From the NCBI GenBank assembly GCA_964578845.1, contig CAZOEF010000002.1, forward strand, positions 220,696 to 252,695: a stretch of 32,000 nt of DNA, given 5' to 3'. The notes below the pieces were generated by a model. The model did not search any database and was not told the origin of the DNA. It worked only from the letters and a program-made list of their open reading frames with translations. The position numbers and the translations under genes were made by a program. This stretch comes from Candidatus Woesearchaeota archaeon (lineage in GTDB: Archaea; Nanobdellota; Nanobdellia; Pacearchaeales; GW2011-AR1). This document shows positions 4,961 through 12,317 of the stretch, one piece after another (the first letter of the stretch is position 1; each line of letters starts with the position of its first letter).

Positions 4961-5239
4961 TTATTTACCTGATAAGATTATTTCTATTCTCGAAGCTAAA
5001 TACTGAGCATCTTCAAAACTGGATGATTGTTCAAAACTGAATGTTAGTCTGCTTCCAGGCAAAGCGCGAGTGCTAATCAAGCCAAAAATATCCCTGGCAT
5101 CATATTCCCCTCTTTCAGGATGGGAAACGTTTACTCTCCCATTATAATTACTTAAAATTTCTATTATCTGTGCAGCCGGAGAAAGATGAAGACCTTCAGG
5201 ACTTAAAACAGGTACAGTAAAATCATATGTATTTTTCAT
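4961..5239 (-). CDS. HPr-like phosphocarrier-domain protein
   Basis: 92 aa. It aligns by eye to E. coli HPr: SPEGLHLSPAAQII versus APNGLHTRPAAQFV (His15 kept, Arg17 replaced by Ser), and ARDIFGL versus AKSLFKL (Asp at the Ser46 position). The ATG overlaps the lig stop codon (ATGA). Confidence 0.6.
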   Translation of the reverse strand: MKNTYDFTVPVLSPEGLHLSPAAQIIEILSNYNGRVNVSHPERGEYDARDIFGLISTRALPGSRLTFSFEQSSSFEDAQYLASRIEIILSGK

Positions 5240-5252
5240 CCTAATCCGTTCT
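5236..5252. repeat. 17-bp direct repeat, copy B (TCATCCTAATCCGTTCT)
   Basis: Identical to 4923..4939. It covers the last five codons plus the stop of lig and the ATG of the HPr-like ORF. Confidence 0.9.
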
Positions 5253-6945
5253 TCCTTGTCTTCTGCATTCTCAAAAACTCTTTCTTTATATCTTCCACTG
5301 TTGCGATATCATGCACTCCCCTTTCAGGGCGGTAATGGGTGATTTTAGGAAAGCGTAATGCATACCCTGAACTGTAAGTCGGGCTTGGCTGCACATTCTG
5401 GTAAGTGACAGATACAACGATTTTAGGCTTTACTGTAACCTGGTTTCCTTTCGTTCTTGTGACTAGCGGCTGCAATAATTTATCCATCTCTTTGTAAGTT
5501 ATTCCCTCTTCTCCTTCTTTCTCCTTAAGTCCTGAAGAAGCCTTTCCCACCTCGACAAATTCCTTGTTCCCGTTCTTGCAGGCTAAAATGAAACTTGTTA
5601 ATCCTCCAGATCTCTTACCAGTTCCGTATTCTGCACCGACAATAACTAGATCCAGATCCTTGGCTTCAGGCTTCATCTTCACCATGAAACCTACTCTTCG
5701 TCCAGGCCTGTAAGGAGCATTTAGATTTTTCATCATTATTCCTTCCTCGCCTGTTTTTAATGCATCCTTATAGAATTTCTCGACTTCTTTTTCATTATCA
5801 GTTACAAATTGTGTGGAGTGCCTTATCTTCCATTTTTCAGGCCTGACAACTTTTTCTAAAAGTTTTCTCCTCTCCTTGAATGGCTTGTCGATCTGGCTAT
5901 CACCGTTCCAGAAAATAATATCGAAGACATTTATCTCAACAGGAAGTTTCTTTATTATCTGGTCAATGTCATACTTCCTTCTTATCCTCTGGCTTATTGC
6001 CTCAAACGGCTTGTATTCTTTTTTATTTGGGTCATATCCTACAACTTCAGAATCTAAAACAAAGCTCTTCCCATTCACATGTTTCTTGATAATCTCAACT
6101 ACATCAGGGAATTGTTTAGTAACATTATCTAGTTTACGCGTAAATAAGCTGACATTCTTCCCATCATAGTTTATCAATACTCTAAAGCCGTCATACTTAT
6201 GCTCAACAGCTAAAGGCTTTCCGCAAATCCTAAAACCCTCAGATAAATCAGTCACTTTAACAGGAAGCATGACTTTGATTGGCTTGCCAGGGATTACCTC
6301 AACTTTATTCAATGCTTTTTTTCCTTTAGTTGCTAATTCCAATATCATAGCGAAATCATTCACTTTATCATAAGCTGATTCGATTAATTCAGTAGCTTCT
6401 TTATCCTCTCCGAAAAAGCTCTTTGCTATTGAATCCCTAAGTATAGCGTCAGCCACACCCACTCTTAGATCATTAAGCAATGTCCTGACAATGTACTTAG
6501 CCTCGCTTCCTGAGGATGAAGTCAATAATTCTATAACTAAAGCCAGTTTCTTGTCAACTGCCCCTTTCCCTTCAATAGTTGCCAAATTCCTCAAATTAGT
6601 AAATACTTTGTCAACACTTAGTTTTTTAGTGAATAATGTTGACTGCTGTTTTTTCCCTATCAGTTCTTCAGCTATCTCCCCTAAATCTCCGATCTTATTG
6701 AATTTCTGGACGATTTTCTCATTACTATTTCCTGTTGCCCTTTCAATGGCTTTTATCACTAGCTGCGTTGAGATCCCAAATTCGCTCTCGTCATAATCAG
6801 GAAAAACTCTTCCCCTGAGCAAGTAAACCAATTCTTCGTGCCCTTTTAATTTAGGAAGGAATTTAGAAAGTATCTCGATCTTCTCGAGTTTCTTTGTAGT
6901 AGAAGCTAATTCATCGTATACTTTTATGAAATCTATATACTGCAT
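5236..6945 (-). CDS. lig: ATP-dependent DNA ligase
   Basis: It has the adenylation motif EHKYDGFRV (KxDG) and an OB-fold region, and its length is typical of archaeal ligases. The ORF-track start at 6960 is TTG, so I trimmed to the first ATG (rc of 6943-6945, MQYIDFIK...). A TATA-like TTAAATA (rc of 6967-6973) lies about 22 nt upstream. Confidence 0.9.
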   Translation of the reverse strand: MQYIDFIKVYDELASTTKKLEKIEILSKFLPKLKGHEELVYLLRGRVFPDYDESEFGISTQLVIKAIERATGNSNEKIVQKFNKIGDLGEIAEELIGKKQQSTLFTKKLSVDKVFTNLRNLATIEGKGAVDKKLALVIELLTSSSGSEAKYIVRTLLNDLRVGVADAILRDSIAKSFFGEDKEATELIESAYDKVNDFAMILELATKGKKALNKVEVIPGKPIKVMLPVKVTDLSEGFRICGKPLAVEHKYDGFRVLINYDGKNVSLFTRKLDNVTKQFPDVVEIIKKHVNGKSFVLDSEVVGYDPNKKEYKPFEAISQRIRRKYDIDQIIKKLPVEINVFDIIFWNGDSQIDKPFKERRKLLEKVVRPEKWKIRHSTQFVTDNEKEVEKFYKDALKTGEEGIMMKNLNAPYRPGRRVGFMVKMKPEAKDLDLVIVGAEYGTGKRSGGLTSFILACKNGNKEFVEVGKASSGLKEKEGEEGITYKEMDKLLQPLVTRTKGNQVTVKPKIVVSVTYQNVQPSPTYSSGYALRFPKITHYRPERGVHDIATVEDIKKEFLRMQKTRKNGLG

Positions 6946-6980
6946 ATCTGCCAAAAGCAAAAAGCGTATTTAACCTTTTG

Positions 6981-6989
6981 CCAGTTTGG
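6981..6989. repeat. target-site duplication, left copy (CCAGTTTGG)
   Basis: It directly abuts the left terminal inverted repeat and is identical to 12309..12317 in direct orientation. Confidence 0.8.
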
Positions 6990-7004
6990 GGCTTTGCACA
7001 ATAA
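6990..7004. repeat. left terminal inverted repeat
   Basis: GGCTTTGCACAATAA is the exact reverse complement of 12294..12308. The transposase stop codon follows immediately at 7005-7007. Confidence 0.85.
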
Positions 7005-8123
7005 CTAAACCCCTTTTTGTGCAGGAAAGGCTTTAACGATTTGCGAAAAATCAAACTCAATTTTAAGCTCAAACATTTCGTGAATAAGAACCACGATATT
7101 ATGTGCTAATACCTTGCAGAGAATCTCATTGTTTTGGCTTCTATCAGATTTGCATCTACAACTATCTCCAAATTTTCTCTTAATCATCGCAAAACAGGTT
7201 TCTACATTACTCCTCTTATGGTAGTGTTCGGCAAATTCTAGGTAGTTTTGGGTAAACAATTTGAACATCTTAGCCCAAGTTGGAGAGCCTCTTGCTTTTC
7301 CCGTCACATTGGATTTGAAAGGAATGTAAGGCATTGCTCCAAGTTCTTTAGCTAACTCAAGGTTATCTCTTGATGAATAAGCCTTGTCTGCTGTGACTTC
7401 TTTAATGTCAAAATGTTCTGCTGTTTGTCTAAGTAATGGTTCAAACATAGTTGAATCTCCTATGTTGCCTTTGGTTATTTCTACAGCAGTGATTACATTA
7501 GTTTTAACGCCACAGAGAACATGTGCTTTCTTGTATTTGCCGAGAGGAGACTTTATTCTATGTTTAATGTCCAACCACCTGTCAAATCTTTGTGTTCCAA
7601 ACCCTGTTGAATCAACTGCAAATCTCTTTTCAATGTGTTTAAGAGGTAATGCGGAAATATTGATGAGATAATGAAGTATCATTCTCATTCCACTATCATC
7701 AAAATAGTTCAGGACCGTATTGAAGTGCGGAACGTCTTGAATATATCCTGCTCTCTTTGCAAGTTCTAAATCCGAGATTAATCTTCTTGAAGAAGTATTT
7801 GTATAAATCTTTATCATAGAGCAAAAAATCATATCTCTCAAGGATTTACGAGGCCTTCCAAAAGTGTATGTTCTTTTTGGAACTACATTTAACAGCTCAG
7901 CAAGAAGTTTGTAAAAGATTAGTTTCTCCTTTGTTTGTGCTTGATTGTATTCGGCCCATTGCTGAGTGTGGACTTTATTCTGAGTCAAATTATGATATTC
8001 CATCTGATTATGCTCTAACGAACTAGAAGGAGGTATCTGTAACTCTGAACTGCTTTTTTCAGTCTTCGGAAACGAGTCCGAAAAATCTTTATACTTATCT
8101 TTTCTATTGTTTTTGGAATTCAT
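7005..8123 (-). CDS. IS4-family DDE transposase
   Basis: The DDE candidates are AVDSTGF, TADKAYSS and NVETCF. HYHKRSNVETCFAMIKRKFG fits the IS4 signature Y-(2)-R-(3)-E-(6)-K exactly. The ORF-track start at 8264 is TTG and its first 47 residues (G/P/R-rich) are atypical, so I trimmed to the ATG at 8123 (MNSKNNRK...). Confidence 0.85.
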   Translation of the reverse strand: MNSKNNRKDKYKDFSDSFPKTEKSSSELQIPPSSSLEHNQMEYHNLTQNKVHTQQWAEYNQAQTKEKLIFYKLLAELLNVVPKRTYTFGRPRKSLRDMIFCSMIKIYTNTSSRRLISDLELAKRAGYIQDVPHFNTVLNYFDDSGMRMILHYLINISALPLKHIEKRFAVDSTGFGTQRFDRWLDIKHRIKSPLGKYKKAHVLCGVKTNVITAVEITKGNIGDSTMFEPLLRQTAEHFDIKEVTADKAYSSRDNLELAKELGAMPYIPFKSNVTGKARGSPTWAKMFKLFTQNYLEFAEHYHKRSNVETCFAMIKRKFGDSCRCKSDRSQNNEILCKVLAHNIVVLIHEMFELKIEFDFSQIVKAFPAQKGV

Positions 8124-8250
8124 TTGCGTGGGTTCCTGGGGACTTCGGTCCCCATTAATGATTATGGGCGTAAGAAAGGAGCACCTTGTCCTCAGGGCAT
8201 GTGTTGTTTGGTAACCTCCCCCGACCTTCGGGGGTGCTACCTTCCCTACA
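8124..8250 (-). ncRNA. GC-rich structured leader or ncRNA upstream of the transposase ATG
   Basis: A hand count gives 66 G+C in 120 nt (8131-8250), against visibly AT-rich flanks. The hairpins are GGGGAC-ttcg-GTCCCC (8138-8153) and CCCCCGA-cct-TCGGGGG (8218-8234). A 16-bp long-range helix pairs 8170-8185 with 8233-8249. Read on the minus strand it has 14 Watson-Crick pairs, 2 G-U pairs and one bulged U. On the plus strand the two G-U pairs become A-C mismatches. Confidence 0.4.
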
Positions 8251-8268
8251 AAAAAACTACGCAATTAG

Positions 8269-8372
8269 GGTTTAAATAGTTTACTATGGTGTATATTAAA
8301 CCAATCTAAACCATAATCTGGGTGAAAAAAGGTATTAGTACTGAATGGTTTAGGAAAGATTTATTAAAACCA
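8269..8372. promoter_or_regulatory. iteron-like (T)TAAACC(A) repeats in the transposase / ParB-like divergent region
   Basis: The copies are at 8269-8275 (rc), 8296-8303, 8306-8313 (10 bp from the previous copy), 8346-8352 (rc) and 8364-8372 (one extra A). Confidence 0.35.
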
Positions 8373-8388
8373 ATTACTAAAATGTTCT

Positions 8389-9393
8389 ATGGTAAAGAAG
8401 GAAGAACTCAAAATAAATTTTGAGACGACTGCTGCCGACGTTAAATTAGACGATTTAAAATTAGATTTAAATAATGTGCGGTTTCAACATTTCTCCAAGC
8501 AGATTTCTGATAAAGAAATGGATAAATTAATTTGGGATGAGCCAGGTACAAAAGAATTGTATGAGCAGATAAAATCAGCAAAGGGTCTATACGAAGAACC
8601 GATAATTGACTCTAATAATGTGGTTCTTGAAGGCAACAGAAGAGTGGTGTGTCTAAGAAAGCTTCGCCAGAAAGTCATTGATGGAGAGCTTCAGGGTTTT
8701 GAAAAAGATGCATTCAAAATAATCAAATGTAGGATGATTCCAGGACATATCTCTGATATGGATAAAAGTCTTCTTTTAGCAACCATCCATGTAAAAGGAA
8801 AGAAACAGTGGCCTGCTTTTAACAAAGCGAAACAAATACATGATTTATATAGAACATACAATATCAGCTACGATAACCTAGCAAAATATCTTGGTATGGG
8901 AAAGATTACTGTTATTAGAATGGTTAAGGCATACGAACAAACTTACAAATATGGTCAAAAATATCCTGATGATAAAGCATGGTATAGAAAATATACTTAC
9001 TTTGATGAGCTTTTCAAAAAGAGAGACTTACAAAACTTTGTTAAAATTCAAGCAAACATTGACAAGTTTGCTAAGTGGGTGAGAGATGGAAAGTTTGATG
9101 ATGTACGAGACATTCGTGCGTTAGCTCAAATAATGGAAGATGAAGATGCGATGCAACGCTTTGAGACTCATGGTTTTAAGGAAGCATTTGAATTATTACA
9201 AGAAAAAAATCCTGTTTTGAGGAGTAGAGAATTTAAACAAATTCAGAAAACAATAGAAACTATTAGTTCCTTTCCAAGAAAAGAGTTAATAAAAACTCTA
9301 ACGGACCCAAGGAGAAAAAAGATAATTCGTAAATTAAAGGAGGAGATTGACTCTTTGGTTAGAGATATAGATGCTTTAGAAAAAGAGGAGTAA
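8389..9393 (+). CDS. ParB/Srx-fold N-domain plus HTH protein (ParB-like, no ParA partner)
   Basis: LDLNNVRF...LYEQIKSAKGLYEEPIID...VVLEGNRRVVCLRKL gives the ParB N-domain with a GxxRR box (8632-8643). It is followed by an HTH-like stretch, ISYDNLAKYLGMGKITVIRMVKAY, and a helical C-terminus. Confidence 0.7.
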   Translation: MVKKEELKINFETTAADVKLDDLKLDLNNVRFQHFSKQISDKEMDKLIWDEPGTKELYEQIKSAKGLYEEPIIDSNNVVLEGNRRVVCLRKLRQKVIDGELQGFEKDAFKIIKCRMIPGHISDMDKSLLLATIHVKGKKQWPAFNKAKQIHDLYRTYNISYDNLAKYLGMGKITVIRMVKAYEQTYKYGQKYPDDKAWYRKYTYFDELFKKRDLQNFVKIQANIDKFAKWVRDGKFDDVRDIRALAQIMEDEDAMQRFETHGFKEAFELLQEKNPVLRSREFKQIQKTIETISSFPRKELIKTLTDPRRKKIIRKLKEEIDSLVRDIDALEKEE

Positions 9394-9407
9394 ATCTAAA
9401 ATGCAAA

Positions 9408-10253
9408 ATGAAAATCCCAACAATAAAAAGTCCGCTTCGTTACCCTGGAGGAAAATCTAAGGCTCTGAAAAAGATACTTCCAATTATCTTGGATTTTGAT
9501 GAGTTCAGAGAACCGATGGTCGGAGGCGGCTCTGTTTTTTTTGCATTGAAGCAAAAATATCCTAATAAGAAATATTGGATAAACGATATAAACAAAGATT
9601 TAATTTTGTTTTATCAATATTACCAGAAAGAACCAACTAAACTAATAAATGAAATCAAAACAATAAAAAAGAAACGCCCTAATGGAAAAGTTCTGTACTC
9701 AAACCTTATAAAAAATTCTGATAATCTTGAGGAGTTTCAAAGAGCAACAAGATTTTTTATTCTTAATAGAGTAACTTTTTCTGGATTAACTGAAGCAGGA
9801 GGATATTCCGAAGAGGCTTTCGTGAAGAGATTTACAGACTCTTCAATACAAAGACTGTCTGAAGCTTCTGATTTACTAAAGGGTATCAAGATAACTAACA
9901 AAGATTATTCCGATGCCCTAAAAGAAAGTGGAGGTAATGTTTTCATATTCCTTGACCCACCATACATGTCAAATTCAAAATCTAAACTATATGGAAAAAG
10001 GGGGTGTTTCCATGAAGGTTTTGACCACAAGAATTTTGCAGAAGATATGAAAAGATGCAAACATAAGTGGTTAATAACATACGATGATACTCCAGAAGTT
10101 AGGAAATTATTTTCTTTTGCAAATATTTACAAATGGAAATTGCAGTATTCTATGAAAAATCATAATGGTAATGGAAACCCAAAAGGTAAAGAATTATTTA
10201 TCTGTAATTTTAAGGTTCCACTAGAGGTAAGAAAACTTTTTGTTCAAATATGA
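9408..10253 (+). CDS. N6-adenine DNA methyltransferase, Dam/D12 class
   Basis: LRYPGGKSK near the N-terminus, the SAM-binding motif EPMVGGGSVFF, and the catalytic FLDPPY motif. Confidence 0.85.
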   Translation: MKIPTIKSPLRYPGGKSKALKKILPIILDFDEFREPMVGGGSVFFALKQKYPNKKYWINDINKDLILFYQYYQKEPTKLINEIKTIKKKRPNGKVLYSNLIKNSDNLEEFQRATRFFILNRVTFSGLTEAGGYSEEAFVKRFTDSSIQRLSEASDLLKGIKITNKDYSDALKESGGNVFIFLDPPYMSNSKSKLYGKRGCFHEGFDHKNFAEDMKRCKHKWLITYDDTPEVRKLFSFANIYKWKLQYSMKNHNGNGNPKGKELFICNFKVPLEVRKLFVQI

Positions 10254-10254
10254 T

Positions 10255-10286
10255 TTTGTGCAAATGGATATAGGAGATTGCACAAA
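10255..10286. promoter_or_regulatory. palindrome TTTGTGCAA-n14-TTGCACAAA between the two MTase genes
   Basis: The 9-bp perfect arms are at 10255-10263 and 10278-10286, starting 2 nt after the Dam-class stop codon. The core TTGTGCAA is the same as in the transposon TIRs. Confidence 0.5.
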
Positions 10287-10338
10287 TTAAATAGTAATTG
10301 CTAGAAAATAATAAATACCTTTACTACAAGAATAGATT

Positions 10339-11298
10339 ATGGACACAAGAAAAGAGATGAAAGTTGTTGATTTGTTCTGCGGTGCAGGAGGGCTGTCTTT
10401 GGGTTTAGCTCAGGCTGGTTTTAAGATAGTAGCAGCCTATGATAATTGGAAAAAAGCAATAGAAACGTACAAGAGAAATTTTAATCACAGCAATATTAAA
10501 GTTTTAGATTTAACCCAATTAAAGGATAAAAACCATCCTGAAATACTTGAAATTAAAAAAATTAATCCAGAAATAGTTGTTGGGGGACCACCTTGTCAGG
10601 ATTTTAGTTCTGCTGGAAAAAGAAATGGCGATGGGGAAAGAGGCAACCTAACCCCTCTCTTTGCAGAAATTGTAGTAGCTATCTCTCCAGAATGGGCTGT
10701 GATGGAAAATGTAAATACTATTAAATCAACTGGTGAGGAACAACTAAAGAAAGCTAAAAAGACCCTCCATGAAGCAGGATATGGTATTTCAACCATGGTC
10801 TTAAATGCTGCAGATTTTGGAGCTCCTCAAAATCGCAAGAGATTCTTTCTTATAGCTAGAAAGGGTGGAAAAGATGGCGAGATGGAAGAGTACATAAAGA
10901 GACAAAAAAAACAAAAGATAAGTGTAAAAGATTATTTCTCATCACTCGGAGATAACCTTGGAGGTTTTCAACACTATTACCGTCATCCAAGAAGTTACGG
11001 TAGGAGAGCTATCTTTAGTATAGATGAACTCAGCCCTACAATAAGAGGAGTAAGTCGTCCAATGCCTAAAAATTATAAGTTTCATAAAGGAGATACCATA
11101 AAAAATAGAAATAAAATAATGGTAATGAATTCTGAACAAAGAGCTACAGTCCAAACTTTCCCAAAGGACTTTGAATGGATTGGAGTAAAGTCAGAAGTTG
11201 AACTTCAAATAGGTAATTCCGTCCCTCCTGTTTTGGCTTCAGCTATAGCCAAAGCGATTAAAGATTACGAAAAGAGCAACATATCAAATTATATCTAA
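10339..11298 (+). CDS. DNA (cytosine-5) methyltransferase
   Basis: All the canonical motifs are present in order: I DLFCGAGG, IV GGPPCQDFS, VI ENV, VIII QNRKRFF, X GNSVPP. Confidence 0.9.
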   Translation: MDTRKEMKVVDLFCGAGGLSLGLAQAGFKIVAAYDNWKKAIETYKRNFNHSNIKVLDLTQLKDKNHPEILEIKKINPEIVVGGPPCQDFSSAGKRNGDGERGNLTPLFAEIVVAISPEWAVMENVNTIKSTGEEQLKKAKKTLHEAGYGISTMVLNAADFGAPQNRKRFFLIARKGGKDGEMEEYIKRQKKQKISVKDYFSSLGDNLGGFQHYYRHPRSYGRRAIFSIDELSPTIRGVSRPMPKNYKFHKGDTIKNRNKIMVMNSEQRATVQTFPKDFEWIGVKSEVELQIGNSVPPVLASAIAKAIKDYEKSNISNYI

Positions 11299-12245
11299 CT
11301 TTCATCTAACTCCATGTTAGCAAGAGTAAAAATTATACTGGCATCTAGCCTTCTTTCAGGGCTTAATTGCTTTATAGAGTCTGGCAAGACTATTTTTTGT
11401 AGCTCAGAAAAATTCAGCCTAGGAGCACTGTATATTTTTCCCAACTCTGGTTTGTGCTCAAAAGGATAAAGAGTAATTTTTAGGTGGTCTCTACTGCCTT
11501 CTGAATCTCCTAAATAAGTTATCTTGTCAGAATTCTTAAATTCTTTAATCCAACTGAGAATTTGGTCTACAACTCTGCCGATTCTAGTTTTTATCATTGT
11601 TCCACGAGAAGTTTTCTCATGGGTTGAATTCAAAAGAATTTTAAGATACGCCAAATCTGTGATAGCAACAACATCAAGAGAGTTTTTTTGGTCAATCCTA
11701 GAATCATGGTTAACAGTTTTCCAAATACCATGTAGAATAAATAAGTCTTGATTTTTCTCTTGTTTTGTTAAAATGCTCTTTAGTTCAGATATTGAAGGAT
11801 TTTTACTTAGGTATCTCCCAAATTTGTAGCAAAGTCTTTCAGCAAAATTGAATTGTGTATTTTGTCTGACAATCATTTCAGTAACTTTACTCTCCGCGTG
11901 TGTCGGAACCACTGTGAGCTTAATCTCAAATTCCAGTAAGAATTTATCTCCTAAGGAAGCCCCCATATCAACACCTGGAGCCCTTCTACTTTTAGAATAA
12001 GAAGGATTTCTGCATTCACTTCCCCAAACAATTTCCTTCAATTTGTCTTTTTTAGTTCCAATTAGCTCACTAAAAAACCTTTCCTCTATCTTTAATTCGC
12101 CAGAACCTACCGAAAGCACTGGAAGTCTCAAATTCTTGTCCTCCAAGAATATTGACGCAGATACTGGAACGTAGGTTGTAAATATGTTTTTTGTTAGAAC
12201 CGTGCTAACATTTGTGTTTTTTACTCCGTATAACTCTTCCGCCAT
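11295..12245 (-). CDS. putative type II restriction endonuclease (PD-(D/E)XK candidate)
   Basis: It is convergent with the C5 MTase and the stop codons overlap by 4 bp. GVDMG(D93)...LLEFE(107)IK(109) fits D-x13-E-x-K. No family was recognised from memory, and the specificity is unknown. Confidence 0.5.
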   Translation of the reverse strand: MAEELYGVKNTNVSTVLTKNIFTTYVPVSASIFLEDKNLRLPVLSVGSGELKIEERFFSELIGTKKDKLKEIVWGSECRNPSYSKSRRAPGVDMGASLGDKFLLEFEIKLTVVPTHAESKVTEMIVRQNTQFNFAERLCYKFGRYLSKNPSISELKSILTKQEKNQDLFILHGIWKTVNHDSRIDQKNSLDVVAITDLAYLKILLNSTHEKTSRGTMIKTRIGRVVDQILSWIKEFKNSDKITYLGDSEGSRDHLKITLYPFEHKPELGKIYSAPRLNFSELQKIVLPDSIKQLSPERRLDASIIFTLANMELDES

Positions 12246-12293
12246 AAAAAAAGATGTAATTTAAGATATTTAGACTTTTTGTGCAAGAACTAC

Positions 12294-12308
12294 TTATTGT
12301 GCAAAGCC
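12294..12308. repeat. right terminal inverted repeat
   Basis: TTATTGTGCAAAGCC is the exact reverse complement of 6990..7004. A second TTGTGCAA lies 14 bp inboard at 12283-12290. Confidence 0.85.
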
Positions 12309-12317
12309 CCAGTTTGG
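12309..12317. repeat. target-site duplication, right copy (CCAGTTTGG)
   Basis: It directly abuts the right TIR and is identical to 6981..6989. Confidence 0.8.

Follow-up and report, generated by a model that had tools for sequence, protein, structure and literature searches.

A conserved, folded non-coding region ahead of the transposase gene of an archaeal IS903-group transposon and its putative role in RNA control

What is the function of a short, GC-rich and highly structured stretch of DNA that lies directly ahead of a transposase gene in an otherwise AT-rich archaeal locus? The question is raised by positions 8124–8250 of a 32,000-nucleotide (nt) piece of contig CAZOEF010000002.1 from a Candidatus Woesearchaeota archaeon, the whole of which is referred to here as the window. 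This segment is located inside a 5.3-kb (5319 bp) transposon of the IS903 group (insertion sequence (IS) family IS5), which spans 6990–12308, and stands there between two divergent promoters. It is a conserved, folded, non-coding region ahead of the transposase gene. As regards its function, the reading that we favor, with a probability of about one half, is that of a structured leader on the sense strand combined with an antisense RNA resembling those of IS10 and IS200, which together would restrain the translation of the transposase.

A folded, non-coding region

With 70 G+C per 127 nt (55.1%), 8124–8250 is the most GC-rich stretch of its length in the window, where the mean is 36.6% (standard deviation 4.9%) and this level is reached at 0.02% of positions; the remaining three stretches with at least 50% G+C are all located within long open reading frames (ORFs). 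The GC island described in the initial annotation, whose count of 66 G+C in 120 nt is exact for 8131–8250, is thus confirmed, and the three helices proposed there are all found at the positions given for them:

8138–8153: 6-bp hairpin, GGGGAC/GTCCCC
8218–8234: 7-bp hairpin, CCCCCGA/TCGGGGG
8170–8185 with 8233–8249: long helix of 16 bp with one bulged U and, on the minus strand, two G-U pairs

Two C residues (8233–8234) are common to the 7-bp hairpin and the long helix. On the minus strand, i.e., in the sense of the transposase, the following structures are predicted, of which the first, designated type B, has a minimum free energy (MFE) of −33.8 kcal/mol:

8170–8249, minus strand: GC-rich closed RNA domain, type B, in which the long helix (8233–8249/8170–8185) encloses the 7-bp hairpin (8218–8234) and a conserved loop
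8151–8168, minus strand: alternative helix P4, CCCAU (8164–8168) with AUGGG (8151–8155), competing with the hairpin at 8137–8154

The conserved loop within the long helix reads GGGAGG-UUACCAAACAACACAUGCCC (8186–8217). Compared with dinucleotide shuffles, folding of the minus strand gives z-scores of −2.3 (8124–8250) and −2.4 (8160–8250), with −2.3 to −2.6 overall, and the plus strand folds more weakly over the same stretches (−1.5 and −1.2, respectively; −1.2 to −2.1 overall). On the plus strand, moreover, the long helix contains two A-C mismatches and is missing from the MFE structure.

Could the segment encode protein instead? ORFs are present on both strands, and one of them extends the transposase upstream across the segment, solely by means of a TTG start (at 8264), as had been noted from the outset. 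In L005, one of the related loci (given here by L numbers) that were fetched via homologues of the transposase and of the neighboring ParB-like gene, the same stretch is out of frame owing to a 1-nt indel and meets a stop codon 21 nt before the ATG; in addition, M1 of the 372-amino-acid (aa) transposase is invariant across 24 homologues. Together, these observations rule out the TTG-initiated N-terminal extension and bear out the non-coding reading first proposed. A 51-aa ORF on the plus strand was rejected as a small protein, since it has no Pfam match and none of the coding readings is conserved across relatives. An 11-codon upstream ORF (MGTEVPRNPRK, 8155–8120, minus strand) is suggestive in that its UGA stop overlaps the AUG of the transposase (AUGA), but it was likewise discarded, since L005 and L097 lack its start and its frame and stop differ from one relative to another. 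A coding function, either as a transposase extension or as a small protein, is consequently next to impossible.

The segment matches no catalogued RNA family. Rfam gave no match at the gathering threshold over the whole 32 kb, and a permissive search (E < 10) of 7900–8450 returned a chance match to RUF1 alone (16 bits versus 70). The leaders of L005, L007, L084, L085, and L088 matched nothing in Rfam, and a tRNA search with ARAGORN found nothing. Further copies of the segment were found neither in the window, nor in viral contigs (as an exact pattern), nor in plasmid and phage collections; the transposase relatives present in viral contigs are distant ones alone, without these leaders.

Conservation of the putative leader and its candidate promoter

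The type-B domain is carried by L005 and L006 alone among the loci compared with the window. At the nucleotide level, the window and L005 are 68.7% identical in the coding sequence (CDS) of the ParB-like gene and 66.9% in that of the transposase, while identity amounts to 92.5% in the domain (8170–8249, 80 nt) and 98.2% in its core (8186–8240). In L005, the 3’ strand of the long helix has four substitutions, which would break three pairs of the old register and instead rebuild a near-perfect helix in a register shifted by one. The hairpin next to the ATG changes from GGGGAC/GUCCCC in the window to GGGGGGC/GCCCCUC in L005, and the competing pairing CCCAU/AUGGG, already recognized in the initial annotation, appears in L005 as CCCUA/UAGGG through two compensatory double changes. 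The other alternative pairing put forward there, CCUGAGGAC with GUCCCCAGG, is not conserved in L005. Thus, the helices are kept and compensated in homologues, and the TTG-initiated peptide is not conserved, so that neither of the two refuting conditions named in the initial annotation applies.

The conserved type-B loop also contains a mini-ORF, AUG-CCC-UGA (8192–8200, minus strand), with GGAGG 16 nt upstream, which may have arisen by chance. The sole substitution between the window and L005 in the 55-nt core changes its UGA into UAA, so that the stop is kept; as a coding unit, the mini-ORF was rejected because it is not conserved across relatives.

Across relatives, the slot between the conserved TATA box with its transcription factor B recognition element (BRE) and the ATG is filled by interchangeable modules, of which there are at least four, i.e., three kinds of structured RNA and one gene for a small ribbon–helix–helix (RHH)-like protein:

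Type A leader (L084, L085, L088, L099): P1 and P2 with a bulge between them, followed by P3 with its UGGAGG loop and unpaired (A)CCCAAUAAU
Type B leader (window, L005)
Type C/D leader (L007, L105, L109, L004): hairpins with UUAUGGG loops
RHH type (L001, L002, L008, L009, L011, L097, L098): 57-aa RHH-like ORF preceded by a palindromic operator

Common descent of both types is suggested by MAFFT, which places the type-B GGGGGAGG-UUACCAAACAAC opposite the type-A GGAGG...UACCCAAUAAU. In an alignment of P1 and P2 from six sequences (the four of type A, the window, and L005), pairing holds in 96 of 97 cells and both sides have changed in 14 of the 19 pair columns, with six G-U against one A-C combination in these helices. 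The pairs of P1 and P2 were counted by hand, without a covariance model, because MAFFT misaligns the outer helix of type A; RNAalifold recovers P2 and P3 from the unedited alignment. Individually, the related domains fold with z-scores of −3.5 to −6, and the sense strand is the more stable one in five of seven domains, the antisense domain being more stable in L085.

Some features of the other modules were observed in passing. The type C/D leaders (L109, about 2395–2490; L004, about 1935–1990; L007, 1585–1650; L105, 2340–2420) form two or three hairpins whose stems differ and whose loops all read (G)UUAUGGG(A). The heptamer UUAUGGG resembles the window pairing CCCAUAA/UUAAUGGGG, and is complementary, with one G-U pair, to the anticodon loop CUCAUAA of tRNA-Met. 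The RHH-like 57-aa ORF (L001, 2700–2945) matches neither Pfam nor NCBIfam, and a perfect palindrome, ATACACC-TTT-GGTGTAT, is located between the TATA box and the start of this ORF in sister elements. In L102, which is a contig of Micrarchaeota, a very GC-rich spacer of 540 nt (1210–1747) separates the ParB-like gene from a transposase; this spacer starts with a hairpin having the loop CCCAAUAAUACCUU, a type-A motif, and it also contains a T-arm-like GCGGGTCCAAATCCCGC, although ARAGORN calls no tRNA there.

Upstream of the segment, two further features were identified:

8271–8282, minus strand: candidate sense promoter, BRE-like AAACTA (8277–8282) and TATA box TTTAAA (8271–8276)
8286–8314: operator-like inverted repeat ATGGTTTAG...ACCAT, between the divergent promoters and just upstream of the sense BRE/TATA

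The AAACTATTTAAA of the sense promoter is kept in the window, L005, L085, and L099. The operator-like repeat is kept in L005, L085, and L099, and its GGTTTAG/TAAACC-type arms change in concert, reading GGTTCAG/CTGAACC in L099. The eight RNA-type leaders all have the centre of the TATA box 23.5–28 nt from the base at which the outer helix begins (24.5 nt in the window), and none of the eight contains a run of five or more T before the ATG. Owing to this spacing and to the lack of T runs, the geometry fits an archaeal transcript that would start with the domain and run on into the ORF. Together with the six-to-one ratio of G-U over A-C, it also upholds the initial view that the long helix favors the sense strand of the transposase. 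A fold-back helix in a read-through transcript, UUGCGU (8259–8264) with ACGCAA before the AUG, was considered and rejected, since its position is ahead of the predicted transcription start and L005 does not keep it.

The strand preference bears on an alternative in which the whole GC-rich region is transcribed from the plus strand, either as a long antisense RNA or as an outward leader into the ParB-like/methyltransferase operon. This operon does lie downstream on the plus strand, no oligo-T occurs in 8115–8389, and the plus strand folds as well, with the antisense domain of L085 as the more stable one. However, the A-C mismatches that remove the long helix from the plus-strand MFE, the excess of G-U over A-C, the predominance of the sense strand in five of the seven domains, and the fact that the ParB-like gene has a conserved TATA-like box of its own, about 25 nt upstream of its ATG, render this alternative improbable. 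Still less credible is an element acting as DNA, be it a site or structure bound by the transposase or by a regulator, or a signal for recombination or replication. Although the type-A CCCAAUAA resembles the CACAATAA of the terminal repeats and the region adjoins the operator-like repeats, the stems change in sequence and yet stay complementary, tolerating G-U pairs, whereas protein-binding DNA sites conserve their sequence; furthermore, in eight of eight leaders, the predicted transcription start coincides with the beginning of the outer helix.

Predicted hairpins on both strands at the start codon

Between the type-B domain and the coding sequence, and partly within the latter, lies a second group of features:

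8137–8154: ATG-proximal hairpin, consisting of the 6-bp hairpin and an additional U-A pair, with the loop CGAA in the sense and C(UUCG)G in the antisense strand
8115–8136, plus strand: antisense hairpin 1, GGAAUUCAU-UUGC-GUGGGUUCC, of 9 bp with 3 G-U pairs (A-C in the sense strand), covering the complement of the start codon
8088–8093, plus strand: candidate antisense TATA box TTTATA, preceded by GAAAAA (8080–8085), inside codons 11–12 (Tyr-Lys); a consensus match only

The ATG-proximal hairpin covaries strongly. Among 14 distinct sequences, 97.8% of cells are paired and six of the seven pairs have changed on both sides, a covariation score that none of 500 shuffles reached. Its stems are very divergent and its loop is constant, CGAA with a C-G closing pair, the complement of which is C(UUCG)G in 13 of the 14 sequences. 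A covariance model of the hairpin (R1) matches upstream of these transposases only, and nowhere else in 430 kb. The stretch GAUUCACACAUCCCGCAAAGAAC between the hairpin and the ATG is conserved both where it is non-coding and where it is coding (L007, L008, and L011). When read as antisense RNA, this stretch is predicted to pair with the sequence complementary to the start codon and to the first 8–9 nt of the ORF, in a helix of 9–13 bp that cannot form on the sense strand because 3–5 of its pairs are G-U.

An equivalent of hairpin 1 is predicted in 11 of 11 relatives, and 95% of cells are paired in the nine long-type relatives that were aligned (alignment A7). In all 11, the antisense strand is predicted to form two adjacent hairpins that are 7–9 kcal/mol more stable than the sense fold; for the window, the values are −22.4 (antisense) versus −14.3 kcal/mol (sense). 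Moreover, TATA(A/T)N starts at nt 31 of the CDS in 11 of 11 relatives, where it coincides with conserved Tyr-Lys codons, and its centre lies 24.5–25.5 nt from the first base of hairpin 1. The initial annotation had envisaged a single switching leader. The competing P4 pairing on which that view drew is backed by the comparison with L005; for the 6-bp hairpin, the antisense strand offers the better explanation, and a view restricted to one strand is probably too simple.

A hairpin with the same CGAA loop is found in L090 (8029–8059), with flanks AUGAA...GCAUUUCAC, between a 91-aa ORF and an IS6-like (DDE_Tnp_IS240) transposase and, thus, this hairpin is not confined to one transposase family. 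On inspection of the hairpin flanks, a kink-turn or box C/D motif was rejected, since AUGAUAA and CUGA occur in RHH-type leaders with a stem spacing unfit for a kink-turn, and the window copy lacks CUGA.

The position inside the transposon, the lack of coding function, the conservation, the covariation, the G-U pairs specific to one strand, and the spacing of promoters and helices are observed; that two RNAs are produced from the two strands and regulate the transposase is our inference, as follows. On the minus strand, transcription would be driven by the BRE/TATA at 8271–8282 and start at about 8249, and the first ~80 nt would fold as a closed GC-rich domain, with the long helix around the 7-bp hairpin and the conserved loop. 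As there is no oligo-T in between, the transcript would continue into the transposase ORF, which would thus be preceded by a structured leader of 126 nt. On the plus strand, the TTTATA box in codons 11–12 would start a short RNA at about 8115, consisting of the adjacent hairpins 8115–8136 and 8137–8154, the second capped by C(UUCG)G; this RNA would be the full complement of the start codon and of the ~30 nt that precede it. Both RNA layers together would keep the translation of the transposase low, as in IS10 (RNA-OUT) and IS200 (art200 together with the structure of the 5’ untranslated region, 5’UTR).

A simpler explanation dispenses with the antisense RNA and regards the ATG-proximal hairpin and GAUUCACACAUCCCGCAAAGAAC as parts of the transposase leader, either as a stabilizer or as a binding site. 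The hairpin covaries and can form just as well on the sense strand, it follows the upstream unit in every architecture, including that of the IS6-like transposase of L090, the Tyr-Lys codons can account for the antisense TATA, and types A and B have no antisense terminator. On the other hand, the invariant CGAA loop has no known special stability, whereas its complement is the classic C(UUCG)G in 13 of 14 sequences; the GAUUCACACAUCCCGCAAAGAAC stretch makes its 9–13-bp helix, with 3–5 G-U pairs, on the antisense strand only, and it is conserved regardless of whether it is coding. For these reasons, a function confined to the sense strand appears rather unlikely.

Several observations weigh against the combination of a leader and an antisense RNA. 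Firstly, only two distinct type-B sequences are available, so that the covariation of the exact helices comes from a handful of substitutions, and the alignment of P1 and P2 across types was fitted by hand. Secondly, the MFE and centroid structures of the sense strand leave the AUG and a weak AGGA (8134–8137) unpaired or marginally paired; because neither is sequestered in the sense MFE, an effect of the leader on translation is not obvious, and partial occlusion of the Shine–Dalgarno sequence is found in other leader types only (L105 and L012). Thirdly, unpaired stretches, namely GGAGG and CCCAAUAAU of type A and the entire type-B loop, are conserved in sequence, which suggests a trans-acting partner that the proposed mechanism does not name. 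On the antisense side, hairpin 1 shows double changes in only two pairs, its G-U pairs being largely invariant instead of covarying, the candidate TATA box coincides with conserved Tyr-Lys codons, and types A and B have no oligo-T after the antisense hairpins, so that the antisense transcript might read on towards the ParB-like gene. Finally, the candidate promoters of both strands are consensus matches only.

Since the start codon is not hidden in the sense MFE and the loops are conserved in sequence, a sizeable rival is retained, in which the GC-rich P1–P3 domain is itself the functional RNA, as a protein-binding or ligand-sensing (riboswitch-like) module or as a processed small RNA, possibly standing in for the RHH-like protein. 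It is favored by the conserved loops (UGGAGG and (A)CCCAAUAAU in the four type-A RNAs, 98% identity in the type-B core), by modularity, the window joining a type-B domain to an L088-like 3’ leader, by the sister elements that place an RHH-like ORF with its palindromic operator in this very slot, and by the occurrence of types A and B solely beside the ParB-like gene. However, this last link is partly a matter of ascertainment, as several loci were fetched through that gene; moreover, between the domain and the ORF there is no terminator or processing signal, neither a ligand nor a partner can be named, and no riboswitch or other RNA family of Rfam matches. On balance, this is a minority view, albeit the strongest of the alternatives. 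Its more specific form, in which the 5’ domain would represent a new class of archaeal riboregulators, sensing or binding protein through GGAGG and CCCAAUAAU-type loops, interchangeable with an RHH repressor gene and travelling with ParB-like/methyltransferase defense cargo, is more speculative.

The host transposon and known systems

The preferred reading of a leader with an antisense RNA concerns a mobile element, whose organization in the window is as follows, the cargo genes being identified by Pfam and PADLOC matches:

6981–6989: target-site duplication CCAGTTTGG, left copy, the identical 9-mer standing directly at both transposon ends
6990–7008, plus strand: terminal inverted repeat GGCTTTGCACAATAACTAA, adjoining the transposase stop codon
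7005–8123, minus strand: transposase CDS, 372 aa, DDE_Tnp_1, IS5 family (Pfam PF01609, E=5e-22), ATG at 8123–8121
8389–9393, plus strand: ParB-like gene (cargo)
9408–10253, plus strand: D12 N6-adenine methyltransferase (cargo)
10339–11298, plus strand: C5 cytosine methyltransferase (cargo)
11295–12245, minus strand: HindVP-like restriction enzyme (cargo)
12290–12308, minus strand: terminal inverted repeat, far end
12309–12317: target-site duplication CCAGTTTGG, right copy

All relatives of the transposase have in common a 3’ end, ...TTGTGCAAAGCC, just beyond the stop codon, and the far end of the transposon was located by searching for the complement of TTGTGCAAAGCC, which was found 5.3 kb away. 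The terminal repeats, GGCTTTGCACAATAA(C/G)TA(A/G), agree at 17 of 19 positions, including the first 15, and L088, a second element of 6.3 kb, shares these ends and is flanked by a 9-bp duplication of its own, GGCTATTCC. TTTTTGTGCAGGAAAGG and TTTTTGTAGGGAAGG, which lie near the segment, were rejected as IS ends, the true ends being 6990 and 12308. The four cargo genes occupy the interval from the transposase promoter to the far repeat. Thus, the setting first described, between the transposase ATG and the promoter region of the ParB-like gene, holds, and what had been overlooked is the enclosing cargo transposon. The transposase scores 143.3 bits against the NCBIfam model transpos_IS5_2 (cutoff 140); 6629 homologues were found, the near relatives of the transposase being in metagenome-assembled genomes of Woesearchaeota, Pacearchaeota, and Nanoarchaeota.

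The cargo corresponds to a type II restriction–modification set and a ParB-like gene. The ParB-like protein matches PD-Lambda-5_A of PADLOC (E=3e-5; best match PDC-M38A, 2e-21) and the D12 methyltransferase matches PD-Lambda-5_B (4e-37), so that, instead of a mere orphan methylase, this pair may constitute a PD-lambda-5-like defense module. About 100 homologues make up the family of the ParB-like protein, almost all of them lacking annotation as well as Pfam domains. The transposon is inserted between the gene of an ATP-dependent DNA ligase (5236–6960, minus strand) and the next gene, at about 12340; beside the ligase lies a phosphotransferase system (PTS) HPr-like protein (PF00381, E=5e-10; 4961–5239, minus strand), which is unusual for such an archaeon. 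In L084 (8044–8143), the far end of the transposon is 25 nt from a tRNA-Arg(CCT) gene.

The insertion sites bear on the proposal that the RNA could serve as a guide by which the transposase finds target or donor DNA, comparable to the IS110 bridge RNA or the TnpB/IscB omega RNA. A structured RNA is indeed encoded next to the transposase gene within the element, and the type-B loop CCAAACAACACAU (8200–8211) shares CCAAAC with the window target site at 6981–6989, as well as ACAACACAT / ACAACACAU with the flank of L005 (3036–3055). However, these short matches lie at differing offsets from the element end and are judged to be due to chance, the RNA of L088 has no match to its target GGCTATTCC, many sister elements lack such an RNA, and the enzyme is an ordinary DDE transposase with terminal inverted repeats and a 9-bp target-site duplication, not one of the DEDD or serine type. 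Above all, the loops of the window and L005 are 98% identical at unrelated insertion sites; because the same RNA is found at different targets, a guide function was rejected, and we consider it extremely improbable.

To our knowledge, almost no regulatory RNAs have been studied experimentally in DPANN archaea, and we know of no account of how their abundant transposons are kept quiet. The locus presents a conserved, covarying RNA architecture on both strands around the start codon of a transposase, in transposons that move restriction–modification and defense genes. If both RNAs are indeed transcribed, this would be the first antisense or leader control described for an archaeal IS903-type element, it would provide new RNA families for Rfam, and it would offer a natural comparison of RNA-based and protein-based control of one enzyme. 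If they are not made, the segment reduces to an unusual conserved GC-rich spacer.

Among known elements, the closest in overall organization are those of the IS903 group, the hallmarks of which are GGCTTTG-type repeats and 9-bp duplications (PMC10569121, PMC6382973). The inverted repeats of IS903B, GGCTTTGTTGAATAAATC (PMC10569121), and of ISAba12, GGCTTTGTTGCACAAA (PMC6382973), both start, like the terminal repeat of the window, with GGCTTTG and contain ..AATAA. Elements of this type and the window element also share the 9-bp target duplication and a DDE_Tnp_1 transposase whose 3’ end runs into the repeat (PMC10569121, PMC6382973). However, IS903/ISAba12-type elements are single-gene IS of ~1 kb, whereas the window element is archaeal and 5.3 kb long with four cargo genes; it does not have the compact transposase-only layout of the group and represents a cargo-carrying derivative. 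No description of a structured leader for bacterial IS903 was found in the literature searched.

As regards the RNAs, IS200 possesses the antisense small RNA (sRNA) art200 opposite the 5’UTR of tnpA and a stem-loop in this 5’UTR, both layers acting on translation (PMC4513863). The likeness lies in a structured 5’UTR combined with a short structured RNA of the opposite strand across the translation start, which is predicted here. Nevertheless, IS200 is bacterial and encodes a Y1 rather than a DDE transposase, there is neither sequence nor structural homology, no Hfq is involved here, and the sense domain of the window stands at the very 5’ end, 45–125 nt from the ATG, with a start site that is not obviously hidden. 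In IS10/Tn10, with RNA-IN and RNA-OUT (PMC5006887), an outward-facing promoter close to the 5’ end of the transposase gene, and within it, makes a stable stem-loop RNA that is the complement of the mRNA around the transposase start; the candidate TTTATA box and the predicted antisense hairpins of the window would correspond to these. However, RNA-OUT is one long stem-loop, whereas the putative transcript of the window would form two short hairpins, one of them capped by UUCG, from an archaeal type of promoter. ISPpu9 of Pseudomonas putida combines a long folded 5’UTR with the antisense sRNA Asr9 and the sense sRNA Ssr9, Asr9 activating by unfolding the UTR (PMC8450116); a long structured 5’UTR and a complementary antisense sRNA within one IS are likewise predicted here, although the IS family is unrelated and there is no homology.

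The IS110 bridge RNA and the TnpB/IscB omega RNA are similar in being structured non-coding RNAs beside a transposition gene. They contain guide segments and operate with enzymes of the DEDD, serine, or RuvC type, whereas the window combines a classical DDE transposase with identical RNA loops at unrelated targets. RNA control of the transposase start region is well known in bacteria; the setting here is an archaeal IS903-type cargo transposon, in which swappable structural types alternate with a protein gene.

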